Of a DNA stretch of 64,000 bases, positions 5,273 to 58,841 are shown piece by piece; within the stretch, counting starts at the first letter, position 1; every line of letters starts with the position of its first letter. The notes beneath the pieces are model-generated. The model was not told the DNA's origin. It saw only the letters and a program-made list of their open reading frames with translations, and did not search any database. This DNA comes from Erysipelotrichaceae bacterium (GTDB lineage: Bacteria; Bacillota_I; Bacilli_A; Erysipelotrichales; Erysipelotrichaceae), in assembly GCA_030528645.1 (NCBI GenBank), contig JAUMYM010000003.1:41521-105520 (forward strand), given 5' to 3'. The position numbers and the translations under genes were made by a program.

Positions 5273-5536
5273 GCTTTAAGTTGTAGTGTATTTCAAACCA
5301 TAATTTTAAACAATAGAAAATGTGTTTGATTGTAAATTTTGACGAACCTAAATTTATAAAGAATAAATGAAAAAACATAACATTGAAATCAATGAATAAG
5401 ATACTGTTACAACATTCTAGTATGTATAAGATAAAATTGTAAGTGGGATAGTTAATTAAGAAATTTTAAATAAAAAAGAAATTAACAAAGTATTATATAG
5501 AGTGGTTATAAAATTAAGGTTACTTAATAGAACGGA

Positions 5537-5626
5537 ATGCATCGTTTACTCTTTCAAAATTTTAAAAATAGAAATAATTTGGTAATGTCTATTATTTTAT
5601 TATATCTACAATTCTATTTATTTTAA
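5537..5626 (+). other. Possible 29-aa small hydrophobic ORF in the adhesin leader (MHRLLFQNFKNRNNLVMSIILLYLQFYLF)
   Basis: It runs from an ATG to a TAA. The ribosome-binding site (aacgga) is weak and the region is AT-rich, so this could be a chance ORF. Confidence 0.15.
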
Positions 5627-5888
5627 TTGCGGTATGAAAGAAACAATCAAATAAAATTTAACACTTGATTATTTTTAAAAAAATGTTTAAAAATGACTAA
5701 TAATGTGAAAAAAATGTTCTAGTCACTTTTTGTTGAAAATGAATAGTAAATGAATAAATATGCATAATTTTATGTTAGAATACGAAGTTGAATAAATGTA
5801 CTAAATGATTTTATAGTATAAATAAACATTCGTTTTTTAATCAGTAAAAATATAATTAGGAAACTTATTCAAATAAAAGAGGTAAAGT

Positions 5889-8800
5889 ATGTTTAAAAAG
5901 ATTTTTTTAATAGCAATGTTTTTAATCGCATCTATTGCCTATAGATCGATTAGTTTTGCACAAACAGATTCAACTTCAGAAGTAGCGGTAAGGCAAGAAG
6001 CTCCTTTAACTGTGGAGACAGAAACATCGGCGGATAAGGAAACTCAACCAGAAGAAGCTACAGTTACTGAAACAGCAGAAACTTCAGTTGTTGCAGAAGA
6101 AACGGTTGATGCCAATGTTGCCTCTGTTGATGAAGCAGAAGCAAATTTAGATGCAGGTATTTTACCTGCAACGTTAAACGCAACATCAAAACAGTTTGTG
6201 TTTTCAACAAATTTAAATCAACTTATTTCGAATGTTGAAATAAGTGGATTAGTTCAAGATGGACAAGGAAATTATGTTGTAGAACCACATAAAGAATATT
6301 CTATTGACTTATCATTTAGAGAAACTGAAACATTACAGTTTGATATGGGTGATACAGACAAGGAGTTTGTCTATACATTACCAAGTGGATTGGAAGGCAT
6401 TACTTCACAACCAACGAATTTTACCATTAATATCGTCGACCAAAATGGTCCGGCAAGTATTACGGGAAATCAATTTACAGTTGAAAATGGGCAAGTAAAA
6501 GTTCGTTTTAATGTGAATGATCCAAATTATGCTCGTTTAAAATTATTACCAAACGTAGCGTTTGCATTAAGCATTAAAGCTAGCTTTGATGGTACACAAA
6601 CTCAAATTGATTTTGGTAATAATGTTTTATTGAAATTACAATATGAAAACAATGCAAGCTTAGAAATTACAAAATTAGGGAAACAACGTAAGGTTGGGTT
6701 ACCAACAATTGATTATGTAGTGACAGTGAAAACAAAAGGTATTAACCATAATGTGGTGATTAGTGATGCCATTACAGGAACAGCGATTTCACTAAATAAA
6801 GATGTAGTTGTTGAATCAAGCCTAAATGGTGTGTTATCACCTACAATCACTTATAATGAAACAACAGGTGTAAACAAAGGATTTCAGTTCACACTTCCAA
6901 GAACATTAAATAATGAAATTATAACAGTTAAATATTCCGCAGAAGCAGATTTTAGTAAGATTATTGAAAAAGGTAATGACGAACAAACATCCAATACTGC
7001 GATTGCAAAAAGTGATGAAGTAGCACAGGTGGAAGCTTTCCATACATTAAGAAACAACATTGAGACTCTATTGATTGTAAAAACTCATAAAGCTATTCAA
7101 AAGAATCCAACAAATCCTTCTATATTTACCGTTCCTTGGACTATTACAGTAAATGAAAATAAATTAATTGATATGAGTGGAAGAGTTATTGAGGATATTT
7201 TCCGTGCTAGTAGTCAAGATAAGGCGAAATTTACTGGTGATGGCATAGTTATTAAGGTTAGTAAAAAAGATGGAAGTAGTGAAACACGCAATTTAAAATG
7301 GAATGAGAATGGTCTGGTACCTATTAAAAATCAAGACGACAATAATATCGTTGGTTTTAGGTATACAATTCCTGCTACAGATGGATTTTCATCTTATACT
7401 ATAGAAGCAAATTCAGAACTGGATAGTAGTAAGTCGTATGTCAGACTAGTTGTTCAAAATCACGCGAAAATTCTAAACTTAAAGGGAGCCACTGGGCAGG
7501 TTACCATCAATCTTACTCCGGGTGTTGGTCAAGATTTATTAACAGCTAAAAAAGAAGCTGTAAGTGTAAACAGTCAAGAGATTGAATGGAAGATTTCATT
7601 ATCTATTTCAAGGAATGGTTATCCAAGATTAGTTGTTTATGATGATAACAGTAAACGTACGATTGTGGGAAAAACATATAAAGATAAATATATTGCTGAT
7701 TCATTGAAAATAGAAGGATTATATCCTGAAGAGACGTTCAATTTTTTCTTAGACGATGCGGATACAACAGAAGCAAATTCTTTTTCAATTGAGTTTTTTC
7801 AAGATCAAGGAAAAGCTACAAAGGGATTATTACCTAGTAAAGATAATCAAAGTCGTAATTTAATTATCACGTATAAAACAAGGGTTAACCAAGAGCTTTT
7901 AAGAATTGCACACGATCAAGGGTATACAGATACAAATGCCATTCACTTTAACAATATGTCAGCTCGTGTAACATTTGATGATTATGTTGCTGCAAGTAGA
8001 ACTGTAACTCCAAAGTTACAAACTATAGAAAAGAAATACACAGTAACAGATACAGCAACAATAGCGGGAGAAGCATATCCGGTATATAAATATGAAATTG
8101 TATTATCAAATCCAACAAATGAAACAGAAACCATTTTAGATGCCTTTGATGTGAATTATTTGAAATATTACGATGTAAATGGAGTGGTAATTAAAGGTGG
8201 ACCGACAGCGGAAGAACAAACAGTTGTTGGTGGAAATGCAACCGGTGAAGCAACGGTTGATGGTATGAAAATTAATATCCATGAGTTTCCAAAAAATGCC
8301 GGAAAATTATATCCATTCTATAAAGTAGAATATTCATTAATTGTAAAAGATAAAGCGGCTTTAGATGCGTTAAATGCCTTAGCGATTAACGCGCCGGAAG
8401 GATATCCATTAACAAATACAGCAACATGGAATGGATTAACAAGCCAAGTAACAGAAGCGAAACATACACATTTTCCATACGTTGATAAAAAGCTAGACTT
8501 AAATCCAAGTTCAGCAAATGATTATATTGCCGAGTTTTCAATTGTAGTAAATAAATTTGGGCAAGACTTAATTCCAAATGCCAATGCTTTAAGTATATCT
8601 GATACTTTATCAGATAGCTTACGTTTCATCCCGGAATCAGTGGTATATGAACCAGCAGTAAACGCAACTTACAATTATGAAAACAACGTTTTAACATTCA
8701 ATGATTTACCGGATAATCAAAAGATAACAATTAAGTATAAAGCAAAAGTATTAGGAAAAGGACTTGTAAACTTTACAAATACAGCAAAATTCTCAAACTT

Positions 8801-10544
8801 TGAATCAAAGATTGTAAATAATGTAAATATTACTTACACAGGTTTAGGAACGGGAAGTAATCCAAGTATTACATTATTTAAAGTGGATGATATTGATAAT
8901 ACAAAACCGGTACAAGGCGTTGTATTCCAATTATTCTATGTCAATGATGCAGGAGTAGATGTTGCCGTAACTGATAAGAATAATAACAATGTAACCTTTA
9001 CAACAGGCGTAGATGGAAAGGTATTGGTGGTAGGAGATTCAGTCAATCTTGGATGGGCACTATGGAGTGATGGAAGAACCTATAAACTAAGAGAAATCGC
9101 AAGACCAAGTTGGTATTTAGCCAAAGGAGAAGATGTTACATTTAAGTTTAAAGATATTCCGGTAGCTGCAGATGAGTATTCTGTAGTAGGAGAAACGTTA
9201 ATGGTACAAAACAGTCGTGTAAAGACAACGGTAACTGCGACAAAGACATGGGTGAATGGACCGGCAAGCGATCATGTTTCAGTGCCTATGGAATTAACAA
9301 GAAGCAGTGCGACAGTAGCGAAAGAAGTTGTAAATGTAATGCCGGAAATTACAGGAACAGGACCATTTACATATACATGGAAAGATCTACCAAAAACAGA
9401 TACATTAGGGAATAACTATACGTATGAAGTAAAAGAACAAGGTGAAGTAAATAGTGTTTATACAACTGCAGGTGGAAATAGCTATGCAGTAAGTCAAGTA
9501 GGCAATAACATTACAAATACGTATCAAGCTGCCATGACAAGCTTTACGGCAACAAAGGTATGGGAAAATGGACCTGCAAATAGACCAACGATTATGTTAC
9601 AGTTAAAACGAAACGGAACTAATTTTGGTCAACCGGTAGCCCTAGTAAATCAAACGACAAAGACATGGGATAACTTACCAAAGAGTGATGATCAAGGTGT
9701 AGATTATGTCTATAGTGTTGATGAAGTAGGAACACCAACAAACTATAGAAAAGAGCTTGTAAACAATACAACGATTAAGAATACGTATGTGATACCAAAT
9801 ACAACGGTAAAAGCAACAAAGGTATGGGTGAATGGACCTGTAACAGACCATAGCGCTGTTGATATTGAATTGTATCGCAATATTTTAGGACAACCAGAAC
9901 AGTTGGTAAATGTAGCACCAGTACTTTCAGGAACAGGACCATTTACATATACATGGAATAATCTTGAACAAACAGATATACAAGGGAATGAATACATTTA
10001 TACAGTAAAAGAGAAAGGTGTAGTCAACAATGAGGTTGTGATTAATGGTAATACGTATGTTGTAAGTCAAGTAGGTAATACCATTACCAACACATATCGA
10101 AGTGCAGAGATTAGTTTTACAGGTACAAAGGTATGGGAAAATGGACCAACCAATAGACCAAGTATACAGTTACAGTTAAAGCAAAATGGAGTGAACCATT
10201 TAGCACCGGTAACATTAGCGAATGGAACATTAAGTTATACATGGACTAAGTTACCAAAAACAGATCAACAAGGAGTAGACTATGTCTATAGTATTGATGA
10301 AGTCGCTGTACCAGCTAATTATCGTAAGACCATTGTCGATGAACAAACGATTAAGAATATCTATGATCCGGTTGTAATAGTCCCAAGTGGAGGAGCGGAT
10401 GAAGAAGTTGAAAGTGTATCACATAGTGTGAAGATACCAAAAACAGGTGATACAACGAATACAACGTTATATGTTGTCTTTGCTGTAGCGGCATCAGCTG
10501 GTTTAGCTTATGTAGTTCTTAAAAGAAAAAAGAATCGTGATTAA
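5889..10544 (+). CDS. Cell-wall-anchored surface adhesin (signal peptide, Cna-B-type repeats, IPKTG sorting signal), paralog 1
   Basis: It has an N-terminal signal peptide (MFKKIFLIAMFLIASIAYRSISFA). Four Cna-B-like repeats carry TKVWxNGPxxRP / TKTWVNGP motifs. The C-terminus has KIPKTGD followed by a hydrophobic helix and KRKKNRD. The ribosome-binding site is aaagagg. Confidence 0.85.
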   Translation: MFKKIFLIAMFLIASIAYRSISFAQTDSTSEVAVRQEAPLTVETETSADKETQPEEATVTETAETSVVAEETVDANVASVDEAEANLDAGILPATLNATSKQFVFSTNLNQLISNVEISGLVQDGQGNYVVEPHKEYSIDLSFRETETLQFDMGDTDKEFVYTLPSGLEGITSQPTNFTINIVDQNGPASITGNQFTVENGQVKVRFNVNDPNYARLKLLPNVAFALSIKASFDGTQTQIDFGNNVLLKLQYENNASLEITKLGKQRKVGLPTIDYVVTVKTKGINHNVVISDAITGTAISLNKDVVVESSLNGVLSPTITYNETTGVNKGFQFTLPRTLNNEIITVKYSAEADFSKIIEKGNDEQTSNTAIAKSDEVAQVEAFHTLRNNIETLLIVKTHKAIQKNPTNPSIFTVPWTITVNENKLIDMSGRVIEDIFRASSQDKAKFTGDGIVIKVSKKDGSSETRNLKWNENGLVPIKNQDDNNIVGFRYTIPATDGFSSYTIEANSELDSSKSYVRLVVQNHAKILNLKGATGQVTINLTPGVGQDLLTAKKEAVSVNSQEIEWKISLSISRNGYPRLVVYDDNSKRTIVGKTYKDKYIADSLKIEGLYPEETFNFFLDDADTTEANSFSIEFFQDQGKATKGLLPSKDNQSRNLIITYKTRVNQELLRIAHDQGYTDTNAIHFNNMSARVTFDDYVAASRTVTPKLQTIEKKYTVTDTATIAGEAYPVYKYEIVLSNPTNETETILDAFDVNYLKYYDVNGVVIKGGPTAEEQTVVGGNATGEATVDGMKINIHEFPKNAGKLYPFYKVEYSLIVKDKAALDALNALAINAPEGYPLTNTATWNGLTSQVTEAKHTHFPYVDKKLDLNPSSANDYIAEFSIVVNKFGQDLIPNANALSISDTLSDSLRFIPESVVYEPAVNATYNYENNVLTFNDLPDNQKITIKYKAKVLGKGLVNFTNTAKFSNFESKIVNNVNITYTGLGTGSNPSITLFKVDDIDNTKPVQGVVFQLFYVNDAGVDVAVTDKNNNNVTFTTGVDGKVLVVGDSVNLGWALWSDGRTYKLREIARPSWYLAKGEDVTFKFKDIPVAADEYSVVGETLMVQNSRVKTTVTATKTWVNGPASDHVSVPMELTRSSATVAKEVVNVMPEITGTGPFTYTWKDLPKTDTLGNNYTYEVKEQGEVNSVYTTAGGNSYAVSQVGNNITNTYQAAMTSFTATKVWENGPANRPTIMLQLKRNGTNFGQPVALVNQTTKTWDNLPKSDDQGVDYVYSVDEVGTPTNYRKELVNNTTIKNTYVIPNTTVKATKVWVNGPVTDHSAVDIELYRNILGQPEQLVNVAPVLSGTGPFTYTWNNLEQTDIQGNEYIYTVKEKGVVNNEVVINGNTYVVSQVGNTITNTYRSAEISFTGTKVWENGPTNRPSIQLQLKQNGVNHLAPVTLANGTLSYTWTKLPKTDQQGVDYVYSIDEVAVPANYRKTIVDEQTIKNIYDPVVIVPSGGADEEVESVSHSVKIPKTGDTTNTTLYVVFAVAASAGLAYVVLKRKKNRD
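8125..10544 (+). repeat. Copy A of a 2.42 kb near-identical direct repeat, forming the 3' halves of the tandem adhesin genes
   Basis: It is identical to 13142..15561 at an offset of 5,017 bp, with one mismatch seen (8176 T versus 13193 C). Identical antisense ORFs appear in the ORF track at this offset. Confidence 0.85.
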
Positions 10545-10546
10545 CA

Positions 10547-10580
10547 AAAAATGACTAGTAATTAAAAACTAGTCATTTTT
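10547..10580 (+). terminator. Rho-independent terminator of adhesin paralog 1
   Basis: A 12-bp perfect stem (aaaatgactagt / actagtcatttt) with an 8-nt loop and a trailing T-run. Confidence 0.7.
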
Positions 10581-10806
10581 ATGTGTAAATTGTCAAAAAT
10601 TATGTTATTATATAGAACTGTATCGACTCTTTTTCTGCTTCTTCAATATATTATAATTTGTATGAAACCCATAGAGATGTGATAGAATGAAGGTGTAGAT
10701 ATGCCGTTTATATGAAATCACAATGACAACAGAAAATCTTTAGGTCGATAATATAACTATTTAAAAAAAGTAAAGTAACCATATTACTTAAGGAAAGAGG
10801 TACCAT

Positions 10807-13800
10807 ATGTTTAAAAAGATTTTTTTAATCGCTGTATTTCTGATTGCATCTATTGCATATAGAACTCTTAGTTTTGCAGAAACTGAGAAAACGAATATAA
10901 ATACGGAATCAGAAATTTCTACAAACACAGAAACGGAATCGAAAGATGAAGTTTCAACAACGATAACTGTTGATGAAAATGCAGAAAGTACGCCTGTAGT
11001 AGTTGAAGAAAATAATCAAACAACTACAGAAGAAGTAATTGCTACAGAGACATCGCCTGATGTAACAGGTCCGAATAGTACAAATCCTGAAACGTTACCT
11101 GAATCAAGTGAGCTGATGCCTGAAACAACAGAAGAAGTAAATGAAAAAATGACTTTAAATGCGGAAGCAGTAACAGAAGAAAACTTAGATGAAGGGATTA
11201 TTCCTGCAAATATAAATCCGTTATCAAAACAATTTGTATTTGATACAAACTTAAATCAATTCGTAAGTAACTTGGAGATTTCAGGTTTAGTGCAAGATGA
11301 ACAAGGAAATTATGTTGTGGTTCCATATACAGAATATTCCATTGACTTATCATTTAGAGAAACAGAAACATTGCAACTTGATATGGATGATACAGGCAAG
11401 GAGTTTATCTATACATTGCCAAGTGGATTAGAAGGTATTAATTCACAACCGACGAATTTTACGATTAATATTGTTGACCAAAATGGTTCGGCGAGTATTG
11501 CGGGAAATCAATTTACAGTTGAAAATGGACAAGTAAAAGTTCGTTTCAATGTAAATGATCCAAATTATGCTCGTTTAAAATTATTGCCAAATGTAGCGTT
11601 TACCTTAACAATTAAAGCTAGTTTTGATGGCACACAAACTCAAATTGATTTTGGTAATAATGTTGTGATTAAGTTAAAATTTGAAAACAATGCTAGTTTA
11701 GAGATTACAAAAACCGGTGCGCAACGTGGCGTATCATCAAAAATTGTTGATTATACATTAACGGTAAAATCAAATGGTATCAATGAAAATGTTCAAATTG
11801 AAGATGTTATTTCTGGAACAGCATTAAATCTAGATAAAAATTTATACATTGTATCAAGTGTAAAAGGTGAACTGAAACCAACGATTACCTATAACGAGGC
11901 ATCTGGTGTCAATAAAGGCTTCTCTACTACGATTGATCGTATGATTAGTGGAGAAATAGTAACGATTAAATATACTGCAAATATTGATTTTAATAAAATT
12001 ACAGATATTGGTACCGTTGCACAAACTGCAAATAGAGCAACAGCACAAAGTACACAATCACCTATGGTGGAAGCAAATCATAGCTTATATAAGAGTATTG
12101 CTTATAAAGGGGTTGAAAAAAAGGCTTCACCTCCAGTGACAAATCCTGGTAACTCTAATTTACATCAAGTGAGTTGGGAAATTAAGGTCAATGAAGAAAA
12201 GTTATTTGATATGAGTAACCGAGTGATTATGGATGAGGTTCATTCAACAAGTACAGGTGTTATGCATATCGTTGGTACTGGTATCAAAATGCAAGTCACA
12301 AAACCGGATGGTTCTGTTGAAAACAGAAATTTAGCATGGAGTGACTTAACGGTTATTCGTGATGGTAGTGGACGTATCACTTCTTGGAAGTATAATGTTC
12401 CATCAACGGATGGCGTTTCTAGTTATAAAATTACAGTAGACACTGAGGTAGATAGTTCAAATATTTTTGCTCGTTTAGTTGTAGTGAATAAAGCTAAAAT
12501 TGAAGGTATTAAAGAAACATCAGCTTCTCAAGTATTTACACCTGGAGTTGGACAAGATACCTTAACAGCAAAAAAAGAAGCAGTAAGTGTAAATAGTCAG
12601 GAAATTGAATGGAAGATTACCGTTGATGTAGCAAGTAAAGGTTACCCATCGTTCTTTATTGTAGATGATGTTACACGTATATTATATAAAGGAGTAACTT
12701 ATAAAGACGAATTCCTTAAACCAACATTATTGGTAGAAGGATTGTATCCGGAAGAATCCTATAAATTAAATGAAATCTTTAATGGAGATGCTAATACATT
12801 TACTTTGGTGTTCTACCAAAATCAAGAGCAAACCATTGAAGGATTAAAACCAAGTACAAACAATCAGAAACGTTCCATTGTAATTACTTATAAGGCAAAA
12901 GTAAATCAAGAAATTTTAGCTATTGCTCATGCCAATGGATATGCAGACTATACGGCTGAACACCGTAATAACATCTCAGCACGTGTAACATCGGGAGACT
13001 ATGTTGGTGCGGTTGCAAAAGCATACCCAAAAATTCAAACAATTGAAAAGAGCTATCTATCAATGACACAAGAAAATGTCAATGGTGCTCCTTATCCAGT
13101 CTTTAATTATTCAGTTGTAATTTCTAATGTATCTGGAGATCCAGAAACCATTTTAGATGCCTTTGATGTGAATTATTTGAAATATTACGATGCAAATGGA
13201 GTGGTAATTAAAGGTGGACCGACAGCGGAAGAACAAACAGTTGTTGGTGGAAATGCAACCGGTGAAGCAACGGTTGATGGTATGAAAATTAATATCCATG
13301 AGTTTCCAAAAAATGCCGGAAAATTATATCCATTCTATAAAGTAGAATATTCATTAATTGTAAAAGATAAAGCGGCTTTAGATGCGTTAAATGCCTTAGC
13401 GATTAACGCGCCGGAAGGATATCCATTAACAAATACAGCAACATGGAATGGATTAACAAGCCAAGTAACAGAAGCGAAACATACACATTTTCCATACGTT
13501 GATAAAAAGCTAGACTTAAATCCAAGTTCAGCAAATGATTATATTGCCGAGTTTTCAATTGTAGTAAATAAATTTGGGCAAGACTTAATTCCAAATGCCA
13601 ATGCTTTAAGTATATCTGATACTTTATCAGATAGCTTACGTTTCATCCCGGAATCAGTGGTATATGAACCAGCAGTAAACGCAACTTACAATTATGAAAA
13701 CAACGTTTTAACATTCAATGATTTACCGGATAATCAAAAGATAACAATTAAGTATAAAGCAAAAGTATTAGGAAAAGGACTTGTAAACTTTACAAATACA

Positions 13801-15561
13801 GCAAAATTCTCAAACTTTGAATCAAAGATTGTAAATAATGTAAATATTACTTACACAGGTTTAGGAACGGGAAGTAATCCAAGTATTACATTATTTAAAG
13901 TGGATGATATTGATAATACAAAACCGGTACAAGGCGTTGTATTCCAATTATTCTATGTCAATGATGCAGGAGTAGATGTTGCCGTAACTGATAAGAATAA
14001 TAACAATGTAACCTTTACAACAGGCGTAGATGGAAAGGTATTGGTGGTAGGAGATTCAGTCAATCTTGGATGGGCACTATGGAGTGATGGAAGAACCTAT
14101 AAACTAAGAGAAATCGCAAGACCAAGTTGGTATTTAGCCAAAGGAGAAGATGTTACATTTAAGTTTAAAGATATTCCGGTAGCTGCAGATGAGTATTCTG
14201 TAGTAGGAGAAACGTTAATGGTACAAAACAGTCGTGTAAAGACAACGGTAACTGCGACAAAGACATGGGTGAATGGACCGGCAAGCGATCATGTTTCAGT
14301 GCCTATGGAATTAACAAGAAGCAGTGCGACAGTAGCGAAAGAAGTTGTAAATGTAATGCCGGAAATTACAGGAACAGGACCATTTACATATACATGGAAA
14401 GATCTACCAAAAACAGATACATTAGGGAATAACTATACGTATGAAGTAAAAGAACAAGGTGAAGTAAATAGTGTTTATACAACTGCAGGTGGAAATAGCT
14501 ATGCAGTAAGTCAAGTAGGCAATAACATTACAAATACGTATCAAGCTGCCATGACAAGCTTTACGGCAACAAAGGTATGGGAAAATGGACCTGCAAATAG
14601 ACCAACGATTATGTTACAGTTAAAACGAAACGGAACTAATTTTGGTCAACCGGTAGCCCTAGTAAATCAAACGACAAAGACATGGGATAACTTACCAAAG
14701 AGTGATGATCAAGGTGTAGATTATGTCTATAGTGTTGATGAAGTAGGAACACCAACAAACTATAGAAAAGAGCTTGTAAACAATACAACGATTAAGAATA
14801 CGTATGTGATACCAAATACAACGGTAAAAGCAACAAAGGTATGGGTGAATGGACCTGTAACAGACCATAGCGCTGTTGATATTGAATTGTATCGCAATAT
14901 TTTAGGACAACCAGAACAGTTGGTAAATGTAGCACCAGTACTTTCAGGAACAGGACCATTTACATATACATGGAATAATCTTGAACAAACAGATATACAA
15001 GGGAATGAATACATTTATACAGTAAAAGAGAAAGGTGTAGTCAACAATGAGGTTGTGATTAATGGTAATACGTATGTTGTAAGTCAAGTAGGTAATACCA
15101 TTACCAACACATATCGAAGTGCAGAGATTAGTTTTACAGGTACAAAGGTATGGGAAAATGGACCAACCAATAGACCAAGTATACAGTTACAGTTAAAGCA
15201 AAATGGAGTGAACCATTTAGCACCGGTAACATTAGCGAATGGAACATTAAGTTATACATGGACTAAGTTACCAAAAACAGATCAACAAGGAGTAGACTAT
15301 GTCTATAGTATTGATGAAGTCGCTGTACCAGCTAATTATCGTAAGACCATTGTCGATGAACAAACGATTAAGAATATCTATGATCCGGTTGTAATAGTCC
15401 CAAGTGGAGGAGCGGATGAAGAAGTTGAAAGTGTATCACATAGTGTGAAGATACCAAAAACAGGTGATACAACGAATACAACGTTATATGTTGTCTTTGC
15501 TGTAGCGGCATCAGCTGGTTTAGCTTATGTAGTTCTTAAAAGAAAAAAGAATCGTGATTAA
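10807..15561 (+). CDS. Cell-wall-anchored surface adhesin, paralog 2, with an extra Thr/Glu-rich N-terminal low-complexity stretch
   Basis: The signal peptide is MFKKIFLIAVFLIASIAYRTLSFA. The N-terminal region is about 85% identical to paralog 1, the middle has diverged, and the C-terminal 804 aa are identical, including the IPKTG sorting signal. Confidence 0.85.
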   Translation: MFKKIFLIAVFLIASIAYRTLSFAETEKTNINTESEISTNTETESKDEVSTTITVDENAESTPVVVEENNQTTTEEVIATETSPDVTGPNSTNPETLPESSELMPETTEEVNEKMTLNAEAVTEENLDEGIIPANINPLSKQFVFDTNLNQFVSNLEISGLVQDEQGNYVVVPYTEYSIDLSFRETETLQLDMDDTGKEFIYTLPSGLEGINSQPTNFTINIVDQNGSASIAGNQFTVENGQVKVRFNVNDPNYARLKLLPNVAFTLTIKASFDGTQTQIDFGNNVVIKLKFENNASLEITKTGAQRGVSSKIVDYTLTVKSNGINENVQIEDVISGTALNLDKNLYIVSSVKGELKPTITYNEASGVNKGFSTTIDRMISGEIVTIKYTANIDFNKITDIGTVAQTANRATAQSTQSPMVEANHSLYKSIAYKGVEKKASPPVTNPGNSNLHQVSWEIKVNEEKLFDMSNRVIMDEVHSTSTGVMHIVGTGIKMQVTKPDGSVENRNLAWSDLTVIRDGSGRITSWKYNVPSTDGVSSYKITVDTEVDSSNIFARLVVVNKAKIEGIKETSASQVFTPGVGQDTLTAKKEAVSVNSQEIEWKITVDVASKGYPSFFIVDDVTRILYKGVTYKDEFLKPTLLVEGLYPEESYKLNEIFNGDANTFTLVFYQNQEQTIEGLKPSTNNQKRSIVITYKAKVNQEILAIAHANGYADYTAEHRNNISARVTSGDYVGAVAKAYPKIQTIEKSYLSMTQENVNGAPYPVFNYSVVISNVSGDPETILDAFDVNYLKYYDANGVVIKGGPTAEEQTVVGGNATGEATVDGMKINIHEFPKNAGKLYPFYKVEYSLIVKDKAALDALNALAINAPEGYPLTNTATWNGLTSQVTEAKHTHFPYVDKKLDLNPSSANDYIAEFSIVVNKFGQDLIPNANALSISDTLSDSLRFIPESVVYEPAVNATYNYENNVLTFNDLPDNQKITIKYKAKVLGKGLVNFTNTAKFSNFESKIVNNVNITYTGLGTGSNPSITLFKVDDIDNTKPVQGVVFQLFYVNDAGVDVAVTDKNNNNVTFTTGVDGKVLVVGDSVNLGWALWSDGRTYKLREIARPSWYLAKGEDVTFKFKDIPVAADEYSVVGETLMVQNSRVKTTVTATKTWVNGPASDHVSVPMELTRSSATVAKEVVNVMPEITGTGPFTYTWKDLPKTDTLGNNYTYEVKEQGEVNSVYTTAGGNSYAVSQVGNNITNTYQAAMTSFTATKVWENGPANRPTIMLQLKRNGTNFGQPVALVNQTTKTWDNLPKSDDQGVDYVYSVDEVGTPTNYRKELVNNTTIKNTYVIPNTTVKATKVWVNGPVTDHSAVDIELYRNILGQPEQLVNVAPVLSGTGPFTYTWNNLEQTDIQGNEYIYTVKEKGVVNNEVVINGNTYVVSQVGNTITNTYRSAEISFTGTKVWENGPTNRPSIQLQLKQNGVNHLAPVTLANGTLSYTWTKLPKTDQQGVDYVYSIDEVAVPANYRKTIVDEQTIKNIYDPVVIVPSGGADEEVESVSHSVKIPKTGDTTNTTLYVVFAVAASAGLAYVVLKRKKNRD
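13142..15561 (+). repeat. Copy B of the 2.42 kb near-identical direct repeat
   Basis: See copy A. Divergence resumes immediately after the stop codon. Confidence 0.85.
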
Positions 15562-15568
15562 ATAACAA

Positions 15569-15594
15569 AGAAGGAATAGAGATTCCTTCTTTTA
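15569..15594 (+). terminator. Rho-independent terminator of adhesin paralog 2
   Basis: Stem agaaggaat / attccttct with loop agag and a trailing TTT. Confidence 0.6.
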
Positions 15595-33063: not shown

Positions 33064-34116
33064 ATGAAAAAAATATTTAAAAGTTACCTATTCAATATAT
33101 TAGTAATTGTATCTTTTACGATACTTGCATTATATTTTACCTTAAAAGATGATTTTAAAACGATTATCAATACTTTGGCGAATGTTAAGATTCCATATTT
33201 ATTGTTGGTCTTAGGTTTGGTGTTATTGATACAAGTATTAATCGGTATGATTCTAACAACGATTACTAAATTAAGTAATCCACATTATAAGTTACGCTAT
33301 GGCATTGTTAACGCCTTAGTAGCAACTTTTTTTCATGGTATTACTCCAAGTGCTTCCGGTGGTCAATTTGCTCAAGTATATGTTTTTAAAAAGCAAGGTG
33401 TTGATATTGCGGATAGTGCAAGTGTACTATGGATGGATTTTATTATTTATCAGGCAACGATGTGTCTTACTGTGTTGTTGTTAATTTTATTGCGTTTTAC
33501 TTATTTTTATCAAAAATATAGTCAGTTTTATATCTTTGTTCTGTTAGGTTTTTTAATTAATGCGTTTGTTATTTTTGGTTTATGGGCGATTGCTCGTTTT
33601 AAATCTGTTTATACTTTTTTAACAACCACATTAATTCGTATTGCACACAAGTTTCGTATAGTAAAAGATATCGATGCAACTTTGCACAATATTGATGTAC
33701 AATTGGAAAAGTTTAAACAAGAAACAGATAAGTTGAAAAAGCATAAATCTATTATTATCAAGTGTATTATTTTAAATGTAATTCGTTGTTTGCTATATTA
33801 TGCAGTTCCTTATTTTGTATATATTGCTTTAGGTTTTGAGGTACATCCGGGTATGTTGGTTTCTATGATGGCTCTTACTTCCTTTGTTTCTATGACAACG
33901 GCATTTATTCCAATTCCGGGAGCCAGTGGGGGTACTGAGGCAGTATTTACCTTGATGTTTTCAGCGATTATGGGTTTAAAAGCATCAAAAAGTGTCATGA
34001 TTTTATGGCGTTTTGCATCCTTTTATTTCATTATGTTGGTAGGTGCATTGGCGTTTGTATATTCAAAGGCAAGTAAAGAAGTGGAGGTTCATCATGAAGA
34101 TAGGCATATTTACTGA
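33064..34116 (+). CDS. UPF0104 / lysyl-phosphatidylglycerol-synthase-TM-like (flippase-like) membrane protein
   Basis: A 350-aa protein with about 8 TM segments, charged loops and an ASGGQFAQ motif. It overlaps the downstream GT4 gene. Confidence 0.55.
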   Translation: MKKIFKSYLFNILVIVSFTILALYFTLKDDFKTIINTLANVKIPYLLLVLGLVLLIQVLIGMILTTITKLSNPHYKLRYGIVNALVATFFHGITPSASGGQFAQVYVFKKQGVDIADSASVLWMDFIIYQATMCLTVLLLILLRFTYFYQKYSQFYIFVLLGFLINAFVIFGLWAIARFKSVYTFLTTTLIRIAHKFRIVKDIDATLHNIDVQLEKFKQETDKLKKHKSIIIKCIILNVIRCLLYYAVPYFVYIALGFEVHPGMLVSMMALTSFVSMTTAFIPIPGASGGTEAVFTLMFSAIMGLKASKSVMILWRFASFYFIMLVGALAFVYSKASKEVEVHHEDRHIY

Positions 34117-36094
34117 TACATATACTCCCGATATTAATGGGGTAGTATCTTCGGTTGTAACATTAAAAAATAGCTTAGAAAAAAATGGACATGAAGTCTA
34201 TGTGGTGACCACTTATCCGGGATTATTAAAAATTCAAAGAGAGAATAATGTGTTTCGTTTACCTGGGATTGAGTTAAAGTTTCTATATGGCTATGTATTA
34301 ACAAGTCCATTACATTTAAGTTTGGTGGATGAACTGGATCAATTACAGTTAGATTTAATCCATGTTCATACAGAGTTTGGGATTGGTATTTTTGCACGTA
34401 TAGTGGCAAAAAGTTTAAATATCCCATTGATTTCCACTTATCATACAACGTATGAAGACTATACACATTATATCAATTTCTTAAAGTTAAGTAGTATTGA
34501 TGAAATTGCTAAAAAAGCAGTTGCCAATTTAAGTAAGATGTATGGAGATTCATCTACGGAAGTTATTGCGCCTTCTGAAAAAACCAAAGAGATGCTGATG
34601 CGTTATAAAATTCGTTCTAAAGTGCATGTCGTTCCAACTGGTCTGGATTTAGATAAATTTAATCCTAAAAATAAAGTAGCATCTAAAGTAATGGCCATTA
34701 AAGAAGAATGTGGTATTAAAGAGGGTACTAAGATGCTTCTATATGTCGGTCGTATTGCAAAAGAAAAGGCGATTGATGTCGTTATTGAAGGTTTTAAGGA
34801 AGTAAAAGAAAAAAAATTAAATATTAAATTTGTAGTGGTTGGTGGTGGTCCTGACTTGGAAGGGCTACAGAAGCTAACAAGTGAATATGATTTGCAGGAT
34901 TACATTGTCTTTTTAGGTCGTAGAAGTGCCGATGTGGTTGCGGATTATTACTTAGCTGCAGATGCCTTTATTTCAGCTTCTTTAAGTGAAACACAAGGAG
35001 TTACTTTCATTGAGGCATTAGCAAGTGCTTTACCCGTATTTGCACGTAAAGATGATGTCATTGTTGATTTAGTATTAGATGGTAAAACAGGCTATTACTT
35101 TAATGAAGAAAAATCTCTTGCTACATGTTTAAAATTGTTTTTAGAGTTATCCAAAGAAGAATTAAAACGCATGCAAGAATGTGCGCTAGAAGTAGTTAAA
35201 CCATATGACATGAATGTGTTTTATCATAAGATTATGGAAGTATATCAAAGTAGTATTGATTTATATCGAAATCAATTCAAAGTAAAAGCTATTTCAAATA
35301 AAAATGATTATGTTACGGTTACATTTACTTCTTATAATAAAAAAGAAACAAAGATGATGATTAATATTGACTCTTTAATTAAATATGGGTTAAGAAAAGA
35401 TGTTGTAGTAACAAAAGATACGATAGATTTACTTTTGAAAGAAGAAAGTGTAGTAAAAGCCTATGATGCTTGTTTAAAGAAGATTGTATTAAAGGATCGT
35501 TCTCGCAAAGAAATGTATGATTTTTTAACACAAAAAACAACATTAGATATTGAAGATATCAATAATATTATTGAAAAACTAGAACAACGTGGTTTAATTG
35601 ATGATTATAAGTATGCCAAAGGACAAGTTTATAACTTAAATTTACTGCTACAAGGACCATTTAAAATTTCTAAATTTTTAAAGAAAAAAGGAATTTCTAT
35701 GGATATCATTGAAGAAGTAGTGAATAAAGAGATAAAACAGGAAGATGAAGATAAACATGCATTAATGTATGCGAACAAAGTGGTGTCTACGATTAAAGGG
35801 AAGTCATTTAAAATGAAGAAGATTCTTTTAAAAGAAAAAATGTTTCATCAGGGCTTTTCTAAAGATGTAATTGATGTAGTAATCGATAAGGTTGATTTTG
35901 GTGCAGATGACTTAAATCAAATGAATACATTAAAAAAAGTAGTGAATAAGGCTTATAAACGCTATAGCAATAAATATAAGGGCAGCAAATTAAGAAACAA
36001 TATATTTCGTTATTGTTTAATGCAAGGGTTTGAAGTGGAAGATATCTACTCAATATTAAATGAAATGGAGTGGGATGATGAGTCAAAAAATTAA
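34094..36094 (+). CDS. GT4 glycosyltransferase (diacylglycerol glucosyltransferase-like N-terminus MKIGIFTDTYTPDINGVV) fused in frame to a C-terminal RecX-like domain
   Basis: GGAGG ribosome-binding site at 34080. The GT-B fold signatures fall in residues 1 to about 400. The C-terminal roughly 255 aa (about 35330..36094) show the RecX-like helical repeat pattern (RSRKEMYDFLTQK..., GLIDDYKYAKG). There is no stop between the two parts. Confidence 0.65.
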   Translation: MKIGIFTDTYTPDINGVVSSVVTLKNSLEKNGHEVYVVTTYPGLLKIQRENNVFRLPGIELKFLYGYVLTSPLHLSLVDELDQLQLDLIHVHTEFGIGIFARIVAKSLNIPLISTYHTTYEDYTHYINFLKLSSIDEIAKKAVANLSKMYGDSSTEVIAPSEKTKEMLMRYKIRSKVHVVPTGLDLDKFNPKNKVASKVMAIKEECGIKEGTKMLLYVGRIAKEKAIDVVIEGFKEVKEKKLNIKFVVVGGGPDLEGLQKLTSEYDLQDYIVFLGRRSADVVADYYLAADAFISASLSETQGVTFIEALASALPVFARKDDVIVDLVLDGKTGYYFNEEKSLATCLKLFLELSKEELKRMQECALEVVKPYDMNVFYHKIMEVYQSSIDLYRNQFKVKAISNKNDYVTVTFTSYNKKETKMMINIDSLIKYGLRKDVVVTKDTIDLLLKEESVVKAYDACLKKIVLKDRSRKEMYDFLTQKTTLDIEDINNIIEKLEQRGLIDDYKYAKGQVYNLNLLLQGPFKISKFLKKKGISMDIIEEVVNKEIKQEDEDKHALMYANKVVSTIKGKSFKMKKILLKEKMFHQGFSKDVIDVVIDKVDFGADDLNQMNTLKKVVNKAYKRYSNKYKGSKLRNNIFRYCLMQGFEVEDIYSILNEMEWDDESKN

Positions 36095-57265: not shown

Positions 57266-58285
57266 GTGTTAACGAAACGACGTTTAGAGATCTTCAAGTG
57301 TATTGTTGATGAATTTATTCAAACGGCAGAACCTGTTGGCTCAAAAACGATTATGGAAAAGTATAACTTGCCATATTCAAGTGCGACCATTCGAAATGAC
57401 ATGATGTATTTAGAAGATATTGGATATTTAGAAAAGACGCATACTTCAAGTGGACGTGTACCCTCAACAAAAGGGTATCGATTCTATGTGGAACATTTAA
57501 TGCAGACCCATATTGATGAGCGTGTTGAATATGCGGTAGCAAATATCTTTGATCGTAAATCAAATATAGATGAAGCAATAAAAGAGAGTTGTGAAATCTT
57601 ATCGCAAATGACCAATCTTGCAAGTGGAGTGTTAGGACCGGATGCTTCCAATCAATTATTGGAGCATATTAAACTCTTTCCACTAGATAGCAAAAAAGCT
57701 GTGTGTGTGTTTATCACAGATTGTGGACATACGGAAAATCGAACATTTGATTTTCATACCGAAGTTTCTTTGGAAGATATACAAAGTTGTTGTGAAATAT
57801 TAAATGATCGTTTGAAAGGTACAAGAATTATAGACTTAGTGGATAAGATGCAATCTTTAAAACCGATTTTAGCACAGAGTGTAAAACGTCATGAAGTCTT
57901 ATTTAATGCCTTTTTAAAAGCATTTATCAAATTTGCAAGTGACAATGTATATTTTGCAGGAACAAACAATATGTTGTATCAACCAGAGTTTTCAGATATT
58001 GAAAAACTAAGAAGTTTAATGAAAATGTTGGGTGATAGTTCTCTTTGGAGAAAAATTGACAGTCCTTCTAATGAGCTTATGATTAAAACAAGTTCAGGAT
58101 CTTCGTTAGTATGGATGGATGATGTTGCTGTAGTAACAAGTCGCTTTCGATTAAATGATGCAGAAGAAGGAAAACTTATGGTAGTTGGTCCATCGCGAAT
58201 GGATTATGATCGTATTGTGGGCTTACTAGAATATATTTCAGATTCAATTGAACGATTATATAGAAATGGAGCAAAAGATGACTGA
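57266..58285 (+). CDS. hrcA: Heat-inducible transcription repressor HrcA (GTG start)
   Basis: A 339-aa protein at the conserved first position of the hrcA-grpE-dnaK-dnaJ operon. Its N-terminal winged HTH is conserved. Confidence 0.9.
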   Translation: MLTKRRLEIFKCIVDEFIQTAEPVGSKTIMEKYNLPYSSATIRNDMMYLEDIGYLEKTHTSSGRVPSTKGYRFYVEHLMQTHIDERVEYAVANIFDRKSNIDEAIKESCEILSQMTNLASGVLGPDASNQLLEHIKLFPLDSKKAVCVFITDCGHTENRTFDFHTEVSLEDIQSCCEILNDRLKGTRIIDLVDKMQSLKPILAQSVKRHEVLFNAFLKAFIKFASDNVYFAGTNNMLYQPEFSDIEKLRSLMKMLGDSSLWRKIDSPSNELMIKTSSGSSLVWMDDVAVVTSRFRLNDAEEGKLMVVGPSRMDYDRIVGLLEYISDSIERLYRNGAKDD

Positions 58286-58841
58286 GGTAAAAAAAGAAGT
58301 ACTTGAAGAAGTAAAGGAGGAGACGTGTTGTACGAATCAAGAGACAACATGTAAATGTGAACATCAACAAGAAACCATCGATCCTCAAGAAGAATTGATA
58401 AACAGGATTGAGGCTTTACAAAAAGAAAATGATAAATTAAAGAATGATTATGCAAAAGCGTATGCGGATACGGAAAACACACGCAAACGACTGATGAGTG
58501 ATTTTGAATTAAATAAGAAATATCGCATTCAAAGCTTTGCATTGGATATTTTACCGGTAATCGATAATTTGGAGCGTTCATTAAAAGGACCACATGAAAA
58601 TGTCGATGAAAATTATATAAAAGGTATTGAAATGATTTATCATCAATTGATTCATGCCTTAAATAAAGAAGGTGTAGAAGAAGTTGATACAAGTGGTGAA
58701 TTTGATGCAAACTTTCATCAAGCATTAATGGTTGAAAAAGTGGAAGGAGTACCTTCCAACCAAGTGATTGAAGTATTGCAAAAAGGATATAAGTTAAAAG
58801 ATCGTATATTACGTGCCGCAATGGTAAAAGTAAGCGAATAG
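58278..58841 (+). CDS. grpE: Nucleotide exchange factor GrpE
   Basis: GGAG ribosome-binding site 6 nt upstream. The start overlaps the hrcA stop. The GrpE C-terminal beta-domain is conserved (..LKDRILRAAMVKV). Confidence 0.9.
   Translation: MTEVKKEVLEEVKEETCCTNQETTCKCEHQQETIDPQEELINRIEALQKENDKLKNDYAKAYADTENTRKRLMSDFELNKKYRIQSFALDILPVIDNLERSLKGPHENVDENYIKGIEMIYHQLIHALNKEGVEEVDTSGEFDANFHQALMVEKVEGVPSNQVIEVLQKGYKLKDRILRAAMVKVSE

Follow-up and report, generated by a model that had tools for sequence, protein, structure and literature searches.

The window, that is, the whole stretch of 64,000 nucleotides that was analysed, derives from a metagenome-assembled genome (MAG) of an oral Erysipelotrichaceae bacterium; coordinates of genes, domains, and blocks given below refer to its + strand. 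Gene A (5889-10544) is an ORF of 1551 aa for an LPXTG-type cell-wall-anchored surface protein that exactly matches a protein of an NCBI MAG (MDO4701401.1), and gene B (10807-15561; MDO4701402.1) encodes a paralog of 1584 aa, as expected from a sequence-only reading of this DNA, which had described two tandem surface proteins of roughly 1,550 aa. The intergenic A-B spacer (10545-10806; 262 nt of unique sequence) contains a terminator-like hairpin 3' of gene A (10546-10581), a promoter-like site upstream of gene B (10723-10752), and the ribosome-binding site of gene B. Another terminator-like hairpin, unrelated in sequence to the first, lies 3' of gene B (15567-15592, strand not assigned); all three kinds of element (hairpin, promoter-like site, and ribosome-binding site) appear to be present separately for each gene. 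The flanking genes in the window (TetR, ABC transporter, pnp, trmB, znuA-like, and polA) are housekeeping genes, no mobile-element genes were seen among them, and GC content is uniform along the locus.

From N- to C-terminus, both products consist of a signal peptide, a head of approximately 880 aa with Ig-like domains, a stretch that weakly matches SpaA, four Cna_B domains, and the IPKTG anchor. Both open with MFKKIFLIA(M/V)FLIASIAYR..SFA, judged by eye to be an N-terminal Sec signal peptide (A, 5889-5963, MFKKIFLIAMFLIASIAYRSISFA/QT as read from the translation, with a putative cleavage site; B, the equivalent at 10807-10881). The SpaA/prealbumin-like domain (Pfam PF17802; aa 993-1088 of A, 8865-9152) scores 22.4 bits (E = 1.3e-4), under the cut-off of 23.1; its copy in B lies at 13882-14169. 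The four Cna_B domains (PF05738; A, 9222-10373, aa ~1112-1495; B, 14239-15390) stand in tandem between head and anchor, the arrangement of a Cna_B-stalk adhesin; all four stretches were matched (E = 7.9e-40 in A and 1.6e-36 in B), and the region consists of two 576-nt units with a mutual identity of 72-77%. The sorting motif IPKTG (A, 10434-10448, aa 1516; B, 15451-15465, aa 1549) is followed by the hydrophobic span TTLYVVFAVAASAGLAYVVL and a KRKKNRD tail, the make-up of a sorting signal, and both Gram_pos_anchor (PF00746; 24.8 bits vs. a cut-off of 20) and TIGR01167 (26.3 vs. 15.9 bits) recognize it. The two products are predicted sortase substrates and are presumed to be adhesins. No sortase was found among the scanned window ORFs; in the genome of a cultured isolate, OH741_COT-311 (see below), the syntenic contig L003 possesses a PF04203 sortase (692-1405) approximately 8.6 kb upstream of its counterpart of gene A, a position that by synteny would fall approximately 2.8 kb before the first base of the window.

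The head is widespread and carries no family annotation. A Pfam search, even at E <= 5, returned no N2-N3 pair (SdrG/ClfA/Cna A-region families) in it; the only matches were a sub-threshold GramPos_pilinBB, DUF11 (26.8 vs. 24.6 bits), and a weak GBS104-like Ig domain. A PDB sequence search gave no match. The predicted head model is all-beta with a pLDDT of 69 (moderate confidence), and its top structural matches were the PrgB Ig-like domains (8beg_B), Bap (7c7u_A), the SspB C-terminal domain (2wza), and Cna (2f68). In Enterococcus PrgB, Staphylococcus Bap, Streptococcus SspB (AgI/II), and Cna, as in the heads described here, beta-sandwich domains are strung together on a sortase-anchored protein, but the identity is only 9-11% and the TM-scores are very low, so that the similarity is one of fold class and not of family membership. 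Three more specific classes were considered and rejected. For a strict-sense MSCRAMM, defined by a dock-lock-latch pair of IgG-like domains (N2-N3), there is no such Pfam or PDB sequence match here, Cna appearing only as a low-TM fold match; a thioester-domain (TED) adhesin would need a Cys-Gln thioester pair in an N-terminal domain, and neither protein contains a single cysteine; a Gram-positive pilus subunit is at odds with the flanking genes listed above, which include neither a pilus-specific sortase nor pilin partners, and with the SpaA score already given.

The most conspicuous feature of the pair is a 3' block of 2,420 nt (aa 746-1551 of A plus the stop codon), present at 8125-10544 in gene A and at 13142-15561 in gene B. 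Self-alignment placed the copies at an offset of exactly 5,017 bp, as had been claimed from inspection, and the T/C difference spotted by eye at 8176/13193 turned out to be the only mismatch in the whole block. It is non-synonymous (Val763 in A, Ala796 in B), and the unbroken perfect run is 8177-10544 (2,368 nt). The earlier description of 804 identical C-terminal residues should thus be read as 804 of 805 matching from aa 747 onward, with unbroken identity over the last 788 aa only. Across the 806 codons, dS between the copies is 0. Both edges are sharp: at 8124/8125, identity changes within a few bases from about 58-60% to 100%, and it ends, as first noticed by eye, with the first base after the stop codons (10545 C vs. 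15562 A), from where the flanks are unrelated. Chance can be excluded as the source of the block's identity because identity between the genes is no more than 58% in the adjoining 1.45 kb. The block had been equated with a conserved stalk; stalk and anchor are indeed included, but it begins at aa 746, approximately 250 aa N-terminal of the weak SpaA-like match, and takes in that much of the head. The block cuts into the conserved head module and does not follow a head/stalk boundary.

Identity between A and B is uneven upstream of the block. The signal peptides are 84% identical, the Glu/Thr-rich linker (aa 26-107) only 43% with large indels, and the first folded domain, here called the N block (A, aa 108-260, 6210-6668; B, aa 148-300, 11248-11706), 87% at the amino acid and 86% at the nucleotide level with a dS of 0.55; the N block is an older homogenised tract. 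The figure of about 85% first given for the N-termini therefore holds for the signal peptide and the N block, but not for the linker between them. The middles (A, aa 261-745, 6669-8123; B, aa 301-778, 11707-13140) have clearly diverged, as had been noted, with 47% aa and 58% nt identity, a dN of 0.48, and saturated dS. They are not variable in the sense first suggested: between species, each middle has a dN/dS of approximately 0.12, a sign of purifying selection, and they are therefore two stable types rather than hypervariable regions. The middles presumably give the two proteins different binding or antigenic properties.

The comparison set comprised three genomes of two species: the window MAG, a sister MAG, and OH741_COT-311, a canine-oral isolate of a different species with an Illumina assembly. 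The isolate has an equivalent tandem pair, genes A' and B'. On its contig 9 (L003), TetR-ABC-FtsX genes are followed by gene A', which stops 158 nt into the block, whereas contig 17 (L004) begins approximately 100 nt ahead of the block end and holds the block end, spacer, gene B', and block start on one contig; both contigs stop at the equivalent of 8282/13299. The window spacer aligns with L004 1-476 at 68.5% identity, and the two spacers are most likely orthologous. Identity between A' and B' sets in at the counterpart of window base 8125, with two mismatches in 158 nt, so that the block starts at the same base in both species. For the isolate's block, the comparison used these 158 nt and roughly 100 nt at its other end, and the interspecies comparison of the block covers 53 codons (aa 746-798).

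Within these limits, the four sequences group in opposite ways along the gene. Informative sites in the middle (aa 261-745) favor grouping by orthology over grouping by genome, 270 to 17, whereas grouping by genome is favored in the N block (aa 108-260; 43 to 4) and at the start of the 3' block (aa 746-798; 33 to 1). The middles of A and B are 77% and 81% identical at the nucleotide level to their isolate orthologs, compared with 58% between paralogs, and the middle of B is 99.6% identical to that on the sister-MAG contig L002. In the N block, the isolate pair is 92.5% identical (dS 0.20), whereas orthologs of the two species are 79% identical (dS 0.83-1.06). At the block start, dS is 0.00 in the window and 0.03 in the isolate but about 1.1-1.2 between species, and the block ends are at least 98-99% identical within a genome vs. 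78% between species. Since the middles group by orthology and the ends by genome, the duplication is older than the species split, and homogenisation of the two tracts has proceeded separately in the two lineages. In the window, A and B last differ at 8176; the corresponding position is the equivalent of 8183/8184 in the isolate and, by inference, of 8202 in the sister MAG, which fits repeated events with slightly different endpoints. Nine sites (six of them synonymous) distinguish the sister-MAG block, and the window copies agree with each other at all nine.

Taken from the sequence comparison, the pattern is one of long-running concerted evolution, in which paralogs are closer than orthologs in the affected tracts only, with near-zero dS and sharp breakpoints; intragenomic gene conversion would explain it most simply, in preference to other recombination routes. 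We consider it likely that A and B go back to an ancient tandem duplication and that two tracts have since been overwritten within each genome by gene conversion, the middle being retained as two types. The sequence-only reading had proposed concerted evolution of an adhesin pair, and the second species, with the same pair and ends that are closer within a genome, bears this out; its recent gene conversion stands as conversion-like homogenisation, but not as one recent event: what is seen now is the latest stage of a process that ran separately in two or more lineages and acted on two tracts differing in age.

Four other explanations deserve attention. One is that the duplication is real but its identity overstated, the blocks being, for example, 97-99.9% alike, collapsed into one graph edge and traversed twice, with the printed 100% a consensus. 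We regard this as possible though on the unlikely side. The source is a MAG, and the exact value of 100% is uncertain because a repeat collapsed in a de Bruijn graph and walked twice gives identical copies by construction; the assembly procedure may by itself have produced the printed identity, and the true one could be slightly below 100%. The perfect run begins, at 8177, directly after the last A/B difference, which fits graph-assembly collapse as well as biology. The repeat is, at 2.4 kb, longer than usual short-read insert sizes, and the sister-MAG contigs L001 and L002 meet at 13220-13274 with an overlap of exactly 55 nt at the block edge, suggestive of k=55 graph assembly. This explanation presupposes such an assembly for the window MAG, and homogenisation is real regardless, given block ends far more alike within a genome than between species. 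Overstated identity alters the degree of homogenisation and not the conclusion of concerted evolution. It is extremely improbable, by comparison, that A and B are alleles from two co-occurring strains misjoined in the MAG. MAGs can merge strains, and the two genes do have their ends in common, but the pure-culture genome contains both, its contig L004 carries gene B' in physical linkage with the spacer and a block end on one side and with a block start on the other, gene A' stands after the same ABC-transporter genes, and the sister-MAG contigs are consistent with the same graph. Two copies are also indicated by the same repeat junctions in independent assemblies (sister MAG and isolate).

A young tandem duplication followed by replacement of one middle with a horizontally acquired divergent cassette is very unlikely, even if the mosaic of a single genome could not tell it from conversion. 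The isolate, of a species at a synonymous divergence of about 1, has orthologs of both middles and of the spacer in the same gene order, so the pair is old; the uniform GC content also speaks against horizontal transfer of a cassette. Were the block a relic of that old duplication, its copies would differ as much from each other as between species, and no such differences are present. The 3' region is better conserved in distant homologs too, and one might ask whether purifying selection alone, without recombination, keeps the 3' halves identical. The probability of this is negligible: synonymous differences escape protein selection, yet the copies show a dS of 0 where the same codons reach about 1.1 between species, and identity ceases exactly at the stop codon.

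Under the preferred reading, ancient duplication with gene conversion, the pair would have arisen before the window species and OH741_COT-311 split, and aa 108-260 and aa 746 to the stop would since have been recopied between the copies within each genome. Non-reciprocal homologous recombination is the likely mechanism; for example, a break or stalled fork in one copy could be repaired from the other, 5 kb away. The tracts would be self-limiting if recombination needs near-identical copies both to start and to resolve: homology runs out at the stop codon, and at aa 746 identity drops to about 58%, an edge that selection for two different middles would strengthen. The outcome would be two proteins with stalk, anchor, and proximal head in common and different mid-head domains. 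We give little credence to the further idea that the homogenised tracts, whose edges are conserved across species, are no passive by-product but are maintained as recombination handles for swapping, deleting, or re-pairing a mid-head cassette of approximately 485 aa between two expression sites, or for its exchange with incoming DNA; chimeras, silent cassettes, and phase-variable repeats were not seen in the three genomes. If true, this would be a Gram-positive counterpart of adhesin switching of the bab or pilE/pilS type, with binding or antigenic variation within a population.

Tandem staphylococcal sdrC-sdrD-sdrE encode LPXTG adhesins with divergent A domains and common B repeats and anchor regions, but differ from the window pair in head and repeat chemistry (Ser-Asp repeats). 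Staphylococcus aureus fnbA and fnbB are closely linked, separately transcribed LPXTG-anchored adhesin genes with C-terminal repeats about 95% identical, N-terminal A domains about 45% identical, and a conserved N1 before divergent N2-N3 (PMC2894786). Identities in the window pair are similarly arranged (N block 87%, middle 47%, C block about 100%). However, the heads are unrelated in sequence, the window stalk is folded Cna_B where FnBPs have disordered fibronectin-binding repeats, and the window tract is longer and near-perfect, with homogenisation that took place separately in each of two species. Helicobacter pylori babA/babB/babC likewise have conserved ends (an N-terminal homology region and a C-terminal part >90% identical) around a variable but paralog-conserved middle, and their loci are known to undergo intragenomic gene conversion (PMC4552749). 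These, however, encode Gram-negative outer-membrane proteins at dispersed loci rather than in tandem, and bab conversion yields chimeras and moves a CT-repeat phase-variation switch, whereas neither chimeras nor a long simple repeat were seen in the window pair. In long-lasting prokaryotic concerted evolution, within-species paralogs are recurrently closer than between-species orthologs, mostly for core pathway or complex genes homogenised over their full length (Wang & Chen 2018, PMC6053082); here, two tracts of a surface protein are homogenised and the middle is protected.

The pattern is thus already known from other bacterial adhesin pairs (fnbA/fnbB, babA/babB), and A/B is a further, clean example that overturns no existing ideas: a pair of bacterial surface proteins whose concerted evolution is limited to well-bounded tracts, with equal tract edges in two species and a protected, presumably functionally distinct middle. 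Two-copy evidence in all three genomes, despite a repeat that is a ready substrate for loss of the gene B head, suggests selection for keeping both genes. The products are probably among the main surface proteins of canine-oral Erysipelotrichaceae [G-1], a barely studied group. On the practical side, the repeat had been flagged as a likely site of assembly collapse, and both the sister-MAG and the isolate Illumina assemblies do break at the 5' edge of the block. In this lineage, short-read assemblies are interrupted by the 2.4-kb direct repeat, which can also mask variants that separate the two copies, and two of the three genomes carry only partial annotations of both genes.

Two ORFs lie in tandem on the forward strand of the window, gene A at 5889-10544 (1551 aa) and gene B at 10807-15561 (1584 aa), and a base-by-base comparison at an offset of 5,017 confirms the near-identical 2.42 kb 3' block that a sequence-only reading had proposed for them. 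Over 2,420 nt, 8125-10544 and 13142-15561 differ at a single position (8176 T, 13193 C), and the longest perfect run between the two genes is 8177-10544 (2,368 nt). Immediately 5' of 8125, the identity between A and B falls to about 55-65%; at the other end, divergence does set in at the first base past each TAA, as had been claimed, and the downstream flanks are unrelated. In both copies, a repeat finder located two 576-nt units inside the block, with a mutual identity of 72-77%.

At the protein level, the earlier claims need some adjustment. The T/C difference changes the encoded residue (A has Val763, B has Ala796) and interrupts the supposedly identical C-terminal 804 aa: from aa 747 onward 804 of 805 residues match, and the fully identical stretch is the last 788 aa. 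The figure of about 85% for the N-termini holds for the signal peptide and for aa 108-260 (the N block), but not for the Glu/Thr-rich linker between them, which is 43% identical in A and B, with large indels.

The history of the pair can be read against OH741, a cultured canine-oral isolate of Erysipelotrichaceae [G-1] sp. COT-311 known from an A5-miseq assembly of Illumina reads (PMC6557473), which belongs to a different species and shares 84% nucleotide identity with the window in the ABC-transporter genes. Its contig 9 carries a sortase gene and, further on, the TetR, ABC, and FtsX genes followed by A', which is cut by the contig end at 797 codons. Contig 17 (2,792 nt) opens with the final 33 codons of a gene for an LPXTG protein, followed by a spacer homologous to that of the window and by B', which is cut by the contig end at 827 codons. 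Both contigs stop at one homologous position (window 8282/13299); their final 158 nt are identical except for two adjacent mismatches, and the identity starts at the base equivalent to window 8125. In a pure culture, therefore, A' and B' stand in tandem as A and B do, and their shared 3' block starts at the same base.

A codon alignment of the four sequences (A, B, A', and B'), extending up to window 8282, gives opposite groupings in different segments. In the middle (aa 263-745), nucleotide identity is 77% and 81% between orthologs and 58% (window) and 59% (isolate) between paralogs, and 270 parsimony-informative sites support orthology against 17 for grouping by genome and 10 for the crossed arrangement. 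In the N block (aa 108-262), orthologs are 79% identical and paralogs 86% (window) and 92.5% (isolate), the sites being split 4, 43, and 2 in the same order; at the start of the 3' block (aa 746-798), the values are 78% for orthologs and 98.7% and 98.1% for paralogs, with 1, 33, and 0 sites. Near aa 260/261 and again near aa 745/746, the grouping switches sharply.

Synonymous divergence gives a similar picture. Between species, dS is about 0.9-1.2 in all segments. Between paralogs, the N block has a dS of 0.55 in the window and 0.20 in the isolate, the block start has 0.00 in the window and 0.03 in the isolate, and the value across the window's whole 806-codon block is 0. The middles show a dN/dS of about 0.12 between species, that is, purifying selection, and a dN of about 0.48-0.51 between paralogs. 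As far as these two lineages go, the site patterns and dS values show that the A/B duplication is older than the species split, that the two middles are old, stable types, and that the N block and the 3' block were homogenised separately in each lineage and at different times. An old duplication with tracts homogenised lineage by lineage matches the definition of concerted evolution, which had been suggested from the window and which the isolate extends to two tracts, with recurrent events and conserved boundaries; the interspecies comparison of the 3' block covers its two ends, as represented on contigs 9 and 17, and a scan of genome contigs for further isolate sequence led back to contig 9 only.

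The repeat had been flagged as a likely site of assembly collapse. The products of A and B match MDO4701401.1 and MDO4701402.1 exactly, from a 145,798-nt contig of a metagenome-assembled "Erysipelotrichaceae bacterium". In a sister metagenome-assembled genome (MAG; GCA_030532865.1), the locus is in pieces: contig L002 corresponds to window 11305-13274 (the middle of B), and contig L001 begins at 13220, within the 3' block, and extends past pnp as far as polA. Their overlap is exactly 55 nt, as if a k=55 graph had branched on entering the repeat; contigs of both the isolate and the sister MAG thus break near the 5' edge of the block, as one would expect of such a site. The other end of L002, at window 11305, lies inside the N block, where A and B of the window have no exact run in common longer than 33 nt, so resemblance between the window's A and B does not account for this break. 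It could come from a coverage gap, from mixed strains, or from an N-block conversion tract that is longer or more recent in that strain.

A chimera produced by strain mixing is ruled out by the presence of both genes in tandem in the pure culture, and identity maintained by selection only was also considered and rejected. Greater caution is needed over how exact the identity is. The window comes from a MAG whose assembler is unstated, and its printed 100% may have been forced if the 2.4-kb repeat was a single graph edge walked twice, merging minor differences between A and B. The two window copies share one allele at all 9 sites that differ from the (collapsed) block of the sister MAG, and agreement at 9 of 9 sites is also expected of a collapsed consensus. 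Forced identity would, however, affect only the degree (exactly 100% versus, say, 99%); the pair and the pattern of concerted evolution are unaffected, since both rest on the comparison with the isolate.

Non-reciprocal gene conversion between the A and B copies would be the economical explanation of the homogenised tracts, because unequal crossing-over within the block would delete or triplicate the head of B rather than homogenise the copies with both genes kept. Under gene conversion, the 3' edge would fall where homology runs out at the stop codon; at the 5' edge, upstream identity would be too low for strand exchange, and a tract, once formed, would tend to renew itself within the same limits. 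Selection for two distinct middles would sharpen that edge. The last A/B difference near it lies at 8176 in the window, at the equivalent of 8183/8184 in the isolate, and at the equivalent of 8202 in the sister MAG (the last inferred from the junction k-mer), and such shifting positions would be expected from recurrent events whose endpoints vary. In the structural model, the edge corresponds to residue 647 of the modelled segment, within a high-confidence run (611-760, pLDDT 74-91) rather than at any low-confidence linker, and by profile search it falls within the conserved head module. The tract, therefore, does not neatly separate stalk from head: the idea of a conserved stalk with variable middles stands insofar as the middles have diverged and the 3' block is shared, but the block edge cuts into the head.

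Both proteins consist of a signal peptide, an acidic Thr-rich linker, a head of about 880 aa, a weak SpaA/prealbumin-like match, a stalk of four Cna_B domains, and a sorting signal in which IPKTG is followed by a hydrophobic span and KRKKNRD. The head module occupies window 6200-8860 in A (aa ~105-990) and 11240-13880 in B. Pfam at relaxed thresholds gave nothing specific for it, only weak or borderline matches (sub-threshold SpaA, GramPos_pilinBB, and GBS104-like Ig, with DUF11 just above the cut-off in the last ~110 aa), and a PDB sequence search with the head returned no relatives. An 893-position profile built from A aa 100-1000 together with B, the fragments from the isolate, and a pair of distant homologs had 703 matches among 1.84 billion cluster representatives (434 at E < 1e-30); among the 150 listed, nearly all span almost the whole profile in a single stretch, in proteins of 1,000-4,700 aa. 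By this profile, the head is a widespread conserved module without a family annotation. Word-indexed protein searches, in which Cna_B proteins filled most of the 8,000 candidates considered, yielded very few relatives, including the isolate fragments (P0008 and P0009), and metagenome contigs scanned with the four-sequence alignment yielded none. The distant homologs P0002 and P0003 are single-copy on their contigs, so the tandem arrangement belongs to this lineage in particular and is not a family-wide habit.

The AlphaFold model of the head is all-beta and of moderate quality (pLDDT 69, pTM 0.40). Among PDB structures, Foldseek ranks PrgB (Ig-like domains) highest, followed by Bap, the SspB C-terminal domain, and Cna, amid generic multi-Ig proteins; with a moderate model, these matches support a "chain of Ig-like domains" but no further detail. 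We conclude, as regards fold class, that A and B encode sortase-anchored surface proteins built on such a chain, presumed to be adhesins. A thioester adhesin was rejected since neither protein contains a cysteine, and a pilus operon was likewise considered for the locus and rejected.

The same pattern is found in Staphylococcus aureus fnbA/fnbB, which are closely linked and transcribed separately, with a repeat region 95% identical versus 45% in the A domains and a conserved N1 (PMC2894786), and in Helicobacter pylori babA/babB/babC, where N- and C-terminal homology regions flank a middle variable region conserved within each paralog, and where intragenomic gene conversion is documented (PMC4552749). 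The A/B pair is unrelated to either in sequence and belongs to an almost unstudied lineage, but the phenomenon is the same. The finding is a useful caution for anyone assembling or annotating genomes of this group, and a clean case for teaching.

Upstream of the pair are genes for a TetR regulator, an ABC ATPase, and a MacB/FtsX permease; downstream are pnp, trmB, a ZnuA-like protein gene, polA, and more housekeeping genes. GC content is even over the pair and its flanking genes (31-38%), on which ground horizontal acquisition of the locus was rejected. A and B are each preceded by a Shine-Dalgarno sequence of their own and followed by a terminator-like hairpin (10546-10581 after A and 15567-15592 after B, unrelated in sequence), and the 262-nt spacer holds a promoter-like site (10723-10752), from which we infer that A and B are transcribed separately. 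An Rfam scan of the whole window returned no families. The non-coding 616 nt upstream of A (5273-5888) are unusually long, with ~24% GC, several promoter-like sites, and no Rfam match. The first codons of both genes contain A5 and T7 runs (5903-5920 and 10821-10838; ATGTTTAAAAAGATTTTTTTAAT), the sole simple-repeat feature near either start and not long enough to suggest slipped-strand phase variation.

On isolate contig 9 (L003), the sortase gene (PF04203, 692-1405) lies between fmt and lepA, ~8.6 kb upstream of A'; by synteny, the equivalent position would lie ~2.8 kb ahead of the window's first base, which would account for the lack of a sortase in the window. A 683-aa ORF at 34043-36094 (+) begins at GTG and has GT4 glycosyltransferase domains (aa 31-379) together with a match to the RecX first-helix domain (aa 473-513). 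Its start overlaps the preceding ORF (33064-34116), and it represents either a fusion or two genes read through as one. The ~200-aa ORFs at 58204-58821 (-) and 58248-58841 (+) overlap almost totally on opposite strands, and at most one is likely to be real.
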